From Myxococcota bacterium (GTDB lineage: Bacteria > Myxococcota_A > UBA796 > UBA2385): a DNA stretch of 64,000 nucleotides. A program made the position numbers and the translations under genes. Where the stretch lies: NCBI GenBank assembly GCA_044344255.1, contig JBIJDH010000009.1, positions 160,001 to 224,000 of the forward strand. Direction: 5' to 3'. Shown here piece after piece: positions 28,581-55,654 of this stretch (positions are counted from its first letter, which is position 1; each line of letters opens with the position of its first letter). The notes below the pieces were generated by a model. That model was not told where the DNA came from. It worked only from the letters and a program-made list of their open reading frames with translations, and did not search any database.

Positions 28581-28657
<77 letters not shown>

Positions 28658-49929: not shown

Positions 49930-50001
49930 TGGGGCGTCGACTAATAGGCAAGTCACTGGACTTTGACTCCAGTCATGCAGGTTCGAGCCCTGCCGCCCCA
50001 A
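49930..50001 (+). tRNA. tRNA-Gln(TTG)
   Basis: Acceptor TGGGGCG/CGCCCCA (U1-A72), D-stem GACT/AGTC, anticodon arm CTGGA-CTTTGAC-TCCAG, T-arm GCAGG-TTCGAGC-CCTGC. CCA not encoded. Confidence 0.95.
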
Positions 50002-51757: not shown

Positions 51758-52702
51758 ATGATCGCCGACATCAAGATCTTCACGGGGAACGCCAACCCCG
51801 AGCTCGCGAACGGTATCGCCGACTACCTCGAGTACCCGATGGGGCGGGCCAGCGTCAGCCGGTTCAGCGACGGGGAGATCAACGTGGAGATCGCGGACAA
51901 CGTCCGTGGGCGGGACGTCTTCCTCATCCAGCCGACGAGCTCCCCCGCCAATGACCACCTGATGGAGCTGCTGATCATGGCGGACGCCTGCAAGCGGGCC
52001 TCCGCCGGGCGGATCACCGCGGTCATCCCGTACTACGGCTACGCGCGCCAAGACCGTAAGGCCGCCCCCCGAGCTCCGATCACCGCCAAGCTGGTGGCAG
52101 ACCTCCTCTCGACGGCCAGCCTCGACCGAATCCTCACGATGGAGCTTCACGCGGGTCAGATCCAGGGCTTCTTCAACATGCCGGTCGACAACCTCTTCAC
52201 CAGCCCGATCCTCTGCCGCTTCTTGCAGCAGGAGCTCACCCTGGAGAACCCGGTCATCGTCTCCCCCGACGCCGGAGGCGTCGAACGCGCGAGGGCCTTC
52301 GCCAACCGCCTGGGGGCCAGCCTCGCGATCATCGACAAGCGGCGCAGCGCCCCCAACGTGGCGGAGGTGATGCACATCATCGGCGACGTGCGCGGCAAGA
52401 CCGCGCTGATCGTAGACGACATGATCGACACCGCCGGCACACTGACCAAGGCGGCCAAGGCGGTCTCCGACAATGGGGCGAGCCGGGTGCTGGCGGTGGC
52501 CACCCACGCCGTGCTCTCTGGCCCCGCGGTCCAGCGAATCCAGGACAGCGTGCTCGAGCGGGTCGTCGTCACCGACACCATCCCGCTCCGCGCCGACGCG
52601 CGCGCCTGCCCGAAGATCAGCGTGGTTTCCGTCGCCTCCCTCTTCGGCGACGCCATCCGAGCCATCCACCACAACGACTCGGTCAGCCGCCTCTTCGTGT
52701 GA
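51758..52702 (+). CDS. prs: Ribose-phosphate pyrophosphokinase
   Basis: [27 protein letters not shown]. Confidence 0.97.
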
Positions 52703-52747: not shown

Positions 52748-52776
52748 TTGACGAGGCCGATCCCGTCGGCTAAATG
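52748..52776 (+). promoter_or_regulatory. Sigma70-like promoter upstream of the rplY leader
   Basis: TTGACG-N17-TAAATG. Confidence 0.5.
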
Positions 52777-52782
52777 GCCGGG

Positions 52783-53080
52783 CCAAACATCTTGAAGGCC
52801 CCAATGGCCCCAGGATGTGCGGAACTCCGACTCTCCCGAGCCGGCTCCTCGCGTGTCGGTCCTCCCCAGGGCCCGCAGTCCAAGACACGCAGAGCCGAGC
52901 CCGCCGCCCTCCGCGGTGAGCTCTACCGGCGCCGGAACACCTGGGCTGCCCGTGATGCTCGAGCATCGCGGAGTCGGACACATCTGACTCTCCCGTTCGA
53001 CGGCGTCATTTGACCCCGTCGGCTTCCCCGCAGGGTGCGGACCGCACCTGGCGCTCGAACATCGACTTCGAGGAGTGACC
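52783..53080 (+). ncRNA. Candidate structured cis-regulatory leader RNA of rplY
   Basis: At least 7 predicted helices between the promoter and the rplY SD, including alternative pairings (see findings). Confidence 0.5.
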
Positions 53081-53659
53081 ATGGACTCAATCAACCTCTC
53101 CGCGACCTCCCGCGACACCAGCGGCAAGAGCGCCAACCGCAAGCTCCGCCGCGCCGGCCAGATCCCCGCCGTGGTCTACACGTCGGGCGGCGTGGCCACC
53201 TCGGTCAGCGTCGATCCCAAGACGCTGGAGCTTGGCTTCGCGAAGACCAAGAACCCGAGCACCCTGGTCAACCTGGAGGTGGCCGACGCCACCCGGATCT
53301 GCCTCGTCAAGGCCGTGCAGCGCCACCCGGTCTCCAAGGTCCTCCGTCACGTCGACTTCTACGAGGTCCACCCCGACGACGACATCATGGTGGTGGTCAA
53401 GGTCGTCCCGGTTGGCACCGCGGCGGGCGTGAAGGCCGGCGGTGTGATGCGCCTCGTCCGCCGAAGCCTGGACATCGTCTGCAAGCCCCGCGACATCCCC
53501 CGCACCATCGACATCGACGTGTCCAACTTCGAGATCGGCACCATCCTCAAGGTCTCCCAGCTCACCCTCCCCGAGGGCTGCAGCATCCAGGGCGGCGGTG
53601 ACTTCAACATGCTCACCGTCCTTGGCAAGCGCGCCGAGACCGAGCGCGGTGGGGCCTGA
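53081..53659 (+). CDS. rplY: 50S ribosomal protein L25/Ctc
   Basis: RKLRRAGQIPAVVY, QRHPV…HVDF, long Ctc form. SD GAGGAG at 53070-53075. Confidence 0.95.
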   Translation: MDSINLSATSRDTSGKSANRKLRRAGQIPAVVYTSGGVATSVSVDPKTLELGFAKTKNPSTLVNLEVADATRICLVKAVQRHPVSKVLRHVDFYEVHPDDDIMVVVKVVPVGTAAGVKAGGVMRLVRRSLDIVCKPRDIPRTIDIDVSNFEIGTILKVSQLTLPEGCSIQGGGDFNMLTVLGKRAETERGGA

Positions 53660-53662
53660 TCC

Positions 53663-54259
53663 GTGTGGTTGGTGGTCGGGCTCGGCAACCCGGGGAAGCG
53701 CTATGAGCGGACCCGGCACAACATCGGCTTTCTGGCCGTGGAGCGCTTCGCCGAGCGCTGGTCCATCAACCCCGACGCCCGAGACCTCTTCGGAGGGAAG
53801 GTGGGCGAAGGTCGGGTGCGGGATGAACGCTGCGTGGTCCTCCGGCCACAGTCCTTCATGAACCTCTCCGGCCAGCCGGTGGTGTCCGTGGCGGGCTTCT
53901 ACAAGGTGCCGCTGGAGAAGGTCGTCGTCGTCCACGATGACGTCGACCTCCCCTTCGCCGACGTCCGCTGCAAGCTGGGCGGCGGGCATGGCGGCCACAA
54001 CGGCCTCCGCGACATCAGTCGCGCGATGACCGGGGGTCACCCTCGGGTGCGCTTCGGTGTCGGCCGCCCCCCCGAGGGCTGGGAGACCGCGGACTGGGTG
54101 CTCGGAAAGTGGAGCGGGGTCGAAGAGGCCGCCCTCCCCACCGCCATCGATCAGGTGGCCACCGTGCTGGAGTCCATCCTCCAAGACGGGGTCAGCGCAG
54201 CGATGAACCGGTTCAACACCCGCCCCAAGGCTGGGGTCGCCCCCAGCGCCTCGGCTTGA
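53663..54259 (+). CDS. pth: Peptidyl-tRNA hydrolase
   Basis: GLGNPG…TRHNIG, MNLSG, HDD, GGHNG. Confidence 0.97.
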   Translation: MWLVVGLGNPGKRYERTRHNIGFLAVERFAERWSINPDARDLFGGKVGEGRVRDERCVVLRPQSFMNLSGQPVVSVAGFYKVPLEKVVVVHDDVDLPFADVRCKLGGGHGGHNGLRDISRAMTGGHPRVRFGVGRPPEGWETADWVLGKWSGVEEAALPTAIDQVATVLESILQDGVSAAMNRFNTRPKAGVAPSASA

Positions 54260-54398
54260 CCGGTCGGGCGCTCCTCCGTCACCCTCGTCTCCGTCTATCT
54301 TGTTTCTCTGTGTCTCCTGTTTTCGAGTTTTATGTTCCCTGTGTCTCTTTATGGCTTTGGGGGCTTCGGCCCCTGAACCCCGGCCTTCGGGCCGGGCC

Positions 54399-54446
54399 CC
54401 TCCGCGGGGGCGGATCCACCGCCCCCCGAACTGGACCGAGTGGAGG
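54399..54446 (+). promoter_or_regulatory. Probable rpsF (S6:S18-binding) leader
   Basis: CCTCC (54399-403) can pair with SD GGAGG (54442-446). It encloses hairpin GGGGGCGG/CCGCCCCC and an unpaired CCG just before the SD, the architecture known for S6:S18 leaders. Confidence 0.55.
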
Positions 54447-54457
54447 TTCGAGCAACA

Positions 54458-54922
54458 ATGCTCCATCATCACGAGTACGAGACGATCTATATCGCGCGTC
54501 CTGACATGGATGACGCGGAGGTCAAGCGCTTCAGCGACAAGTTCGAGCGCATCATCGCCGAATACAAGGGCACCATGCTGGTGAACGAGGAGTGGGGTCG
54601 TCGCAAGATGGCCTACCCCATCAAGAAGCACCAGATGGGCCACTACACGTACCTCAACTACGTCGGGCCCGCCGATCTCCCCGCCGAGCTCGAGCGCAAT
54701 CTGCGCATCGAGGACAACCTCCTCCGCTTCCTGACCATCCTCCTCGCCGAGGACGTCGAAGTCGAAGAGCGCCGCACCCTCGCCCTCGATCGTCAGCGCA
54801 AGCGCGCCGAGAAGCTCGCTGCGATGCTTCAAGACGACGAGAACGAAGACCTCGGGGATGACGATCTCGGCGGACGCCGTGACCGCGACAGCGGCCGCGA
54901 CGAGGTCGAGGACGACGAGTAG
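54458..54922 (+). CDS. rpsF: 30S ribosomal protein S6 with acidic C-terminal extension
   Basis: YET.YI.RP, WG.RKMAYPI, position in the operon. Confidence 0.95.
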   Translation: MLHHHEYETIYIARPDMDDAEVKRFSDKFERIIAEYKGTMLVNEEWGRRKMAYPIKKHQMGHYTYLNYVGPADLPAELERNLRIEDNLLRFLTILLAEDVEVEERRTLALDRQRKRAEKLAAMLQDDENEDLGDDDLGGRRDRDSGRDEVEDDE

Positions 54923-54973: not shown

Positions 54974-55204
54974 ATGTCTCGTTTCCGTCGTCTGGGTCGG
55001 CGCAAGGTTTGCCGTTTCTGCGCTGACAAGACCGTCACCATCGACTACAAAGATCCGAAGCTGCTCCGCAACTTCATCACCGAGCGGGGCAAGGTCGTGC
55101 CGCGCCGCATCTCCGGCAACTGCGCGCGCCATCAGCGCGAGCTGGCCGTGGCGATCAAGCGGGCCCGTCACATCGCCTTCCTGCCCTTCCTCGCGCTCGA
55201 GTAG
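54974..55204 (+). CDS. rpsR: 30S ribosomal protein S18 (Zn-binding C+ type)
   Basis: CRFC…IDYKD…CARHQR. Confidence 0.97.
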
Positions 55205-55213
55205 GGGGCTCAC

Positions 55214-55654
55214 ATGAAGGTCATTCTCCAGCAGGAAGTCGCCAACCTCGGCAAGACCGGGGACGTCGTGAAGGTCCGGGACGGTTACGGCCGTAACTTC
55301 CTGATCCCGCGCGGCCTCGCCACCCTCGCCGACGAGCGCAACGTCGCCCGCATCGCCCACCTCCAGCAGGTGGCCGCTGCCACGGCCGCCCGCGAGCTCG
55401 CCAGCGCGCGGGAGCTGGCCGACAAGCTCTCCAGCGTCGCCATCACCATCAAGCGGGAAGCGGGCGCCGAGAACAAGCTGTTCGGCTCCGTGACCAACCG
55501 CGACGTGGCGGAGGCCCTGGTCGCCGAGGGCTACAACATCGATCGTAAGCAGGTGATCCTCCCGGAGCCCATCCGGACGATCGGCCTCAACCACGTGCCC
55601 ATCAAGCTGCACCGCGACGTGCAGACCCAGATCAAGGTCTACGTCCTCCACTAG
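55214..55654 (+). CDS. rplI: 50S ribosomal protein L9
   Basis: MKVIL…GYGRNFLIP, KLFGSVT. Confidence 0.97.
   Translation: MKVILQQEVANLGKTGDVVKVRDGYGRNFLIPRGLATLADERNVARIAHLQQVAAATAARELASARELADKLSSVAITIKREAGAENKLFGSVTNRDVAEALVAEGYNIDRKQVILPEPIRTIGLNHVPIKLHRDVQTQIKVYVLH

Follow-up and report, generated by a model that had tools for sequence, protein, structure and literature searches.

In the 5' untranslated region of rplY in a Myxococcota bacterium, we identified a well-supported new RNA structure, a compact H-type pseudoknot of about 110 nt (52840..52951, + strand) that consists of three covarying helices and is present in each of the order's seven families. All coordinates refer to the window, that is, the whole stretch of 64,000 nucleotides analysed here. 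Ribosomal proteins likely hold down expression of the operon through this leader, with S6:S18 as the predicted ligand and L25 as a less likely one. Feedback on ribosome synthesis acts mainly through the leaders of ribosomal-protein genes, and most of these leaders are, to our knowledge, unknown outside a few model phyla. The original prediction of a structured leader RNA upstream of rplY, transcribed from a separate promoter, holds, and part of this RNA is conserved. In contrast, the 300-nt multibranch switch drawn there is replaced by the compact pseudoknot, which that description did not contain.

The leader lies in the 378-nt spacer between prs, which ends at 52702, and the rplY start codon, an ATG at 53081. 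rplY (53081..53659, + strand) encodes an L25 protein of the Ctc form (192 aa) and is the first gene behind the leader, followed on the same strand by pth (peptidyl-tRNA hydrolase; 53663..54259), rpsF (S6; 54458..54922), rpsR (54974-55204) and rplI (55214-55654). Transcription is predicted to start near 52783 from a + strand promoter at 52748..52776 that combines the -35 element TTGACG (52748-53), a 17-nt spacer and the -10 element TAAATG (52771-76). A generic sigma-70 scan of the leader region returned no promoter match, and the promoter, proposed from the window alone, is borne out by its conservation across the order. An alignment of 25 relatives' spacers retains a promoter block TTGACR-N17-TAnnnn, equivalent to 52748-52776 here, and TTGAC-N17-20-TA is present in 24/25 and 58/73 prs-rplY spacers, compared to 1/73 for its reverse complement.

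The nearest relatives are represented by metagenome-assembled genomes that carry the labels Myxococcota or Deltaproteobacteria bacterium. Their best L25 identity is only 52-53% and no closer relatives were found in genome or metagenome contig collections, so that the genus of the window stands alone in these collections. Behind the motif, the relatives' genes are arranged as rplY-pth-(H+-pyrophosphatase)-rpsF-(rpsR)-rplI, with rpsF on the same strand and 3' of the rplY leader throughout the relatives checked (5/5 in one set). According to Pfam, an H+-pyrophosphatase gene separates pth from rpsF in most families. Such an H+-translocating pyrophosphatase gene was seen between pth and rpsF at loci L011, L013, L024, L026, L092, L093, G011, G020, G007, G001 and G005; the genome of the window has none at this position and a pth-rpsF gap of about 180 nt. 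At L130-L151 (family f7) and several loci of family f4, rplI follows rpsF after ~100-200 nt with no S18 match in the gap, and rpsR seems to lie elsewhere in these genomes.

The core motif (52840..52951) is the whole match to our covariance model R1. Its closing stem P1 is formed by GCGUGUC (52851..52857) and GACACGC (52884..52890) and corresponds to a hairpin listed in the original prediction (52851-57/52884-90). Continuous with P1 on the 5' side is the P2 hairpin GGUCCU-CCCC-AGGGCC (52858..52873; 52858-63/52868-73), and between P2 and the 3' strand of P1 lies a 10-nt 3' bulge, CGCAGUCCAA (52874..52883), the last six bases of which, GUCCAA, fit the pattern G-N-C-C-R-N. The 5' strand of the pseudoknot (52875-82) is located inside this bulge and pairs with the 3' strand UGGGCUGC (52942..52949), the bulge/UGGGCUGC duplex amounting to -14.5 kcal/mol. 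P1 and the pseudoknot helix are 0-1 nt apart, with P2 in loop 1 and variable hairpins in loop 3. In the window, this variable insert (52897..52935) comprises a P3 hairpin (52897-52923) and a weak second hairpin, and one or two hairpins of unrelated sequence occupy the insert position in every relative.

The complete + strand leader (52783-53080) folds better than shuffled sequence, with a minimum free energy (MFE) of -141.5 kcal/mol compared to -117.2 +/- 5.3 for 200 dinucleotide shuffles (z -4.60, 0/200 as good); for the antisense strand of the same region, the fold z is -2.54. The sequence strings quoted in the original prediction sit at the coordinates given there, including two occurrences of GACTCTCCCG (52829-38 and 52986-95), and most of its helices were recovered in the MFE fold. 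These comprise 52787-94/52811-18 with GGCC/GGCC, 52843-47/52892-96 and 52851-57/52884-90 in the 5' half, and 52950-58/52963-71, 52972-78/52983-89, 52997-53003/53016-22, 53033-39/43-49 and 53055-59/53067-71 in the 3' half. The proposed helix AGCCC(52898-902)/GGGCT(52943-47) clashes with the covarying pseudoknot, which uses 52942-49, and does not exceed chance level as an alternative partner (p 0.54).

Outside the genome of the window, the conserved part of the leader is only 52840-52951. The other hairpins listed earlier and the switch-type pairings compared across relatives are lineage-specific or at chance level; the either/or pairing of GAGTCGGA (52971-78) with 52826-33 or 52983-90 is a candidate in a genome for which no close relative was found. 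The 5'-terminal hairpin of the MFE fold, ACAUCUUG/CAGGAUGU around GGCC/GGCC (52787..52818, + strand), is lineage-specific and cannot be aligned with the relatives, and four further + strand hairpins of this fold (52950-71, 52972-89, 52997-53022 and 53029-53; annotated as 52950..53049) are specific to the window's genome. The first of the four begins directly behind the 3' strand of the pseudoknot; in same-family relatives, the stretch between this strand and rplY measures only 64-83 nt and holds one hairpin abutting the strand. A final + strand hairpin in the MFE fold, UCGAA/UUCGA (53055..53076), ends at the Shine-Dalgarno (SD) sequence GGAG (53072-75).

Two forms of a conserved switch were considered and rejected. 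An alternative partner within the insert for the 3' strand of the pseudoknot was significant in only 4/42 leaders, all of one genus, and a conserved anti-SD pairing of the 5' flank (ACUCC/GGAGU) in only 3/62 leaders, which is chance level. As no conserved alternative pairing was found (4/42, 3/62), a riboswitch-like switch is not supported. In the window itself, ACUCC (52824-52828) is joined to the SD sequence GGAGU (53072-53076) in the MFE fold, a pairing that closes the leader as a whole. In the leaders L176, L177, L182 and L186, all of genus g35 in family f2, the bulge sequence recurs as GCGGAGUCCG just behind P1. With this repeat, the pseudoknot 3' strand could alternatively form 10 bp (p 0.005-0.01), and this genus may possess a genuine switch.

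Because BLASTN of the spacer in 40 relatives returned one true short match only, spacers for the covariation analysis were gathered by synteny. L25 was found in 39/41 relatives, and 25 loci showed the prs-rplY arrangement with spacers of 215-421 nt. The seed alignment A3 was built from 18/25 spacers, after L010, L016, L017, L024, L031, L032 and L035 had been dropped for a poor or unclear pseudoknot. A visible pseudoknot was one of the selection criteria for these 18 seed sequences, in which base pairs fill 90.3% of cells and double changes occur in 14/23 pairs; this selection biases the seed-set statistic, while the covariation test on R1-aligned leaders and the pseudoknot test on 63 leaders were performed without it.

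The collected prs-rplY spacers share a conserved core in which all three helices covary. Covariance model R1, which treats the pseudoknot strands as unpaired, aligned 35 leaders, and in this alignment (34 sequences) 89.9% of cells are paired and 18/23 pairs show double changes. None of 500 shuffles reached any of these measures (0/500), and controls with slid partners gave 33-45% paired. Resolved by helix (34 sequences), P1 shows changes on both sides in all 8 pairs, P2 has 95.6% of cells paired with double changes in 5/6 pairs, and the pseudoknot helix is 82.6% paired with 5/9 pairs compensatory. RNAalifold independently gives P1 and P2. For the pseudoknot, the best helix between bulge and downstream sequence was compared to 200 shuffles of the downstream sequence in 63 distinct unselected leaders, and outperformed them at p<=0.05 in 31/63 and at p<=0.01 in 15/63.

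Within the covarying helices, individual positions are fixed. The G, C and C of the bulge are invariant in 34/34 sequences, and the base after CC is a purine in 51/51. Pairs around the invariant GUCC/GGAC core of the pseudoknot vary in type (position 2: CG 17, GC 8, AU 6, UA 3; position 3: AU 22, CG 11; position 8: AU 23, GC 10), and examples with switching flank pairs are GCAGUCCAG/CUGGACUGC, CGGAGUCCAG/CUGGACUCCG, ACGUCCAU/AUGGACGU and GGAGCCC/GGGCUCC.

R1 detects the element in its own 8.2-Mb genome with 68.1 bits and, bearing in mind that E-values of both R1 and R2 (the model of the order's rpsF leaders) are rough, an E-value of 2e-7, as the sole match at E<=1. Under strict filters, 23/151 genomes of the order match R1 with one match each. 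Laxer searches of fetched loci gave matches in 35/45 and in 30/65 sources, 29/30 of the latter directly 5' of rplY, and a permissive descriptor also retrieved family f4 forms missed by R1. The motif spans the seven families of the order in one copy per genome, and its hosts are all uncultured. Outside the order, R1 had 0 matches in 131 genomes of the phylum and the prs-rplY gap is only ~14-145 nt (17 loci), indicating that promoter and leader together are an invention of this order.

A search of the leader against Rfam 15 yielded no family at gathering scores or E<=10, in line with the earlier view that it belongs to no known family. In the entire 64-kb window, the only Rfam matches are two tRNA genes (28581-28654 and 49930-50001). 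The literature searched, including the Eckert and Weinberg 2020 table (PMC7247131) and PMC4408793, describes no rplY leader outside Enterobacteria. As described in Aseev 2015 (PMC4408793), the enterobacterial rplY (L25) leader is likewise a 5' UTR element behind an rplY-specific promoter, for which autogenous translational control is the expected logic. However, that study portrays a short leader with an atypical SD-like element, whereas the element described here forms a 110-nt pseudoknot and is followed by a canonical GGAG SD. The two belong to different phyla, and no Rfam model links them.

In the Escherichia coli rpsO (S15) and alpha-operon (S4) leaders, binding of a ribosomal protein stabilises an H-type pseudoknot near the ribosome-binding site. 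The rplY element would work like these systems, although its sequence and ligand are unrelated to theirs. It also differs from them in that loop 1 contains a hairpin and loop 3 hairpins totalling 40-80 nt, and in a distance to the ribosome-binding site that varies from 15 to 132 nt.

The ligand prediction derives from the RpsF_leader/S6S18CBM motif (RF02893) as described in Matelska 2013 (PMC3854524) and Fu 2014 (PMC3895269). According to these studies, S6:S18 is an experimentally shown repressor that reads the CC(R) bulge, and the motif 'invariably precedes rpsF' (PMC3895269). Both elements consist of a stem whose 5' strand runs directly into a hairpin, with a 3' bulge of ~10 nt that carries an invariant CC and a purine just before the 3' strand of the closing stem, one more base preceding P1 in the rplY element; both are set in a ribosomal-protein operon containing rpsF. 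In RF02893, the CC is found 2-3 nt ahead of the 3' strand of the closing stem H1, and this strand contains or adjoins the SD of the regulated gene. In contrast to RF02893, the rplY element precedes rplY rather than rpsF, the SD is not part of its closing stem, which in the window is 190 nt away from the start codon, and its CC is paired in the added pseudoknot.

The window also contains the S6:S18-binding-type leader of rpsF itself (54399..54446, + strand), in which P1 (CCUCCGC/GUGGAGG) holds the SD, 54406-26 forms a hairpin and the bulge ends in GACCGA. It scores 49.3 bits with R2, and G-N-C-C-R-N-G-U-GGAGG is common to 32 rpsF leaders of the order. RF02893 misses this evident rpsF leader and the 32 alike in the order even at E<=10; among 14 control genomes, its cut-off was passed only in E. 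coli.

Comparing the two kinds of leader in the order showed that both read [P1...C][GG...P2...CC][bulge...G-N-C-C-R-N][G...P1] and that their invariant and free positions coincide. In the rplY leader, P1 ends with a C-G pair, P2 opens with G-C and G-C, and the 3' strand of P1 starts with G; the C-G / G-C junction pairs are the same as in the rpsF leaders of the order. Towards its end, the bulge has a fixed G, a free N, fixed C and C, a purine and a free N. Furthermore, an ORF ends 12-25 nt before rpsF in 11/14 f2 and 5 f4 genomes, which leaves no room for an rpsF-proximal leader. Since rpsF has no leader of its own there (11/14 f2, several f4), the rplY leader is the only structured leader of the cluster in these genomes. 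These parallels point, tentatively, to an autoregulatory ribosomal-protein leader whose ligand could well be the S6:S18 heterodimer, with both ligand and mechanism inferred. That the leader is a duplicated and rebuilt S6:S18 module, locked by a pseudoknot and heading an L25-led operon in a cross-subunit feedback circuit, is a bolder proposition that we put forward with somewhat greater reserve.

Several observations speak against S6:S18. The bulge CC, which S18 reads as unpaired bases, pairs with GG in the covarying pseudoknot, and the 3' strand of P1 (52884-90) does not include the SD (53072-75). The motif precedes rplY, and rpsF is located 1.4 kb downstream with its own motif, so that a second S6:S18 site is not needed here. 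RF02893 scores no rplY hairpin at gathering score or E<=10, a weak test because the model also misses the evident rpsF leader of this genome. R2 likewise scores no rplY hairpin, and R1 in turn finds no rpsF leader. A descriptor shared by both leaders was not rare, with 460 genomic matches compared to 332 in decoys and 1537 matches for a looser version; because a loose descriptor is common in a GC-rich genome, the argument for S6:S18 rests on shared conservation and not on rarity. Two additional candidates were discarded: the purine after CC agreed between the two leaders of one genome in 26/42 cases with about 50% expected, which is unconvincing, and 16S rRNA mimicry was not seen beyond CCR, judged on two same-family relatives whose 16S has no other block in common with the leader (the window genome's own 16S being unassembled).

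Feedback by L25/Ctc itself, in which L25 would bind the folded pseudoknot, read the GUCC/GGAC helix by the P1 junction and repress its own translation, is in our estimate rather unlikely but deserves serious consideration. The original prediction had named an L25-sensing RNA as one option, and the connection to L25 stands insofar as the motif accompanies rplY in all genomes, even where the 2-kb pyrophosphatase gene splits pth from rpsF. Recognition of the paired form would also explain why both pseudoknot strands are invariant, and L25 fits simple repression near the ribosome-binding site; autoregulation via the rplY 5' UTR was shown in E. coli (PMC4408793). What this reading leaves unexplained is the one-by-one match of free and fixed positions with the rpsF leaders: the constrained nucleotides copy the S6:S18 motif of these leaders, a likeness that L25 feedback would have to attribute to coincidence or to the remains of a duplicated rpsF leader. 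Moreover, no Rfam match connects the element to the enterobacterial leader. Mimicry of 5S rRNA was considered and dropped, as the leader bears no likeness to loop E or helix IV of the genome's own 5S rRNA and a 10/12 match to helix IV in one relative is, judged by eye, not conserved.

The same fixed positions weigh against a leader that acts without any feedback ligand, by stabilising or processing the mRNA or by tuning translation through temperature or folding. Although the ligand is only inferred and 5' structures are common in long GC-rich leaders, invariant GUCC/GGAC and junction pairs within freely covarying helices point to specific recognition rather than to mere stability, and we regard a protein-independent role as improbable. 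Even less probable is a small-molecule riboswitch with the pseudoknot junction as the pocket for, e.g., a nucleotide-derived signal linked to the prs and pyrophosphatase genes. A compact H-type pseudoknot with invariant junction nucleotides is indeed found in several riboswitch classes, but the riboswitch-like RNA envisaged in the original prediction is unlikely because more than 90 genomes each have the element once, and always in one and the same gene context. An aptamer before several functionally linked genes with an alternative-pairing platform was not found; the leader has no Rfam riboswitch match, and neither alternative pairing nor an expression platform is conserved (4/42, 3/62). The length of the spacer (378 nt) could accommodate an independent small RNA or a prs 3' UTR element, the former also raised at the outset, yet we consider this explanation highly implausible: in every genome, one strand carries the conserved promoter, the element and rplY in this order, the spacing and arrangement with respect to the rplY start are maintained, and no terminator-like site was found in the leader region.

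Returning to S6:S18 as the ligand, the position of the pseudoknot suggests how the leader could act. The 3' strand of the pseudoknot ends 15-42 nt before the ATG in most f2, f3 and f4 leaders (f2, 15-24 nt, that is, 4-5 nt before the SD; f3, 31-62 nt; f4, mostly 17-29 nt), compared to 27-85 nt in f7, 64-83 nt in f1 and 132 nt in the window. In family f1, a hairpin starts right behind this strand, and an abutting hairpin is present in the window, too. Based on these distances and the abutting f1 hairpin, we propose that the pseudoknot docks the protein-binding module by the ribosome-binding site. In this model, the promoter would start the transcript and the core would fold into P1, P2 and the pseudoknot between bulge and downstream sequence, which would keep the module on the stretch immediately preceding the rplY ribosome-binding site. 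S6:S18 in excess over free 16S rRNA would then bind the P1/P2 junction and the G-N-C-C-R-N bulge, either in the pseudoknotted form or in competition with the pseudoknot, and the bound complex would impede 30S loading at rplY. Expression of the downstream genes, in many relatives including an rpsF without its own leader, would drop through translational coupling or mRNA decay.

If this model is correct, S6:S18 would govern L25, peptidyl-tRNA hydrolase and the proton pyrophosphatase, and in lineages without an rpsF-proximal leader its own synthesis would be controlled from 1.2-3.5 kb upstream. The rplY leader would then represent a rare traceable case of a ribosomal-leader motif that was copied and re-used and, as read here, illustrates how a protein-binding hairpin may act at a distance via a pseudoknot. 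Whether the small-subunit pair S6:S18 controls a large-subunit operon, or L25 evolved a second, unrelated leader, is a testable question.

Two observations concern the rpsF side of the operon. The pth-rpsF spacer of this ~70% GC genome contains a markedly T-rich stretch (54290-54350), which may be an internal rpsF promoter, and, 3' of it, two GC tetraloop-type hairpins (54360-54397). In the rpsF leaders L122, L124, L204, L230, L217, L219 and L236, a pairing site GGAC for the bulge GUCC is located right behind the SD (GGAGGAC) or, in family f3, just before the ATG (CAGGACGAUG), and these sequences hint that the canonical rpsF leader of the order may be pseudoknotted as well.
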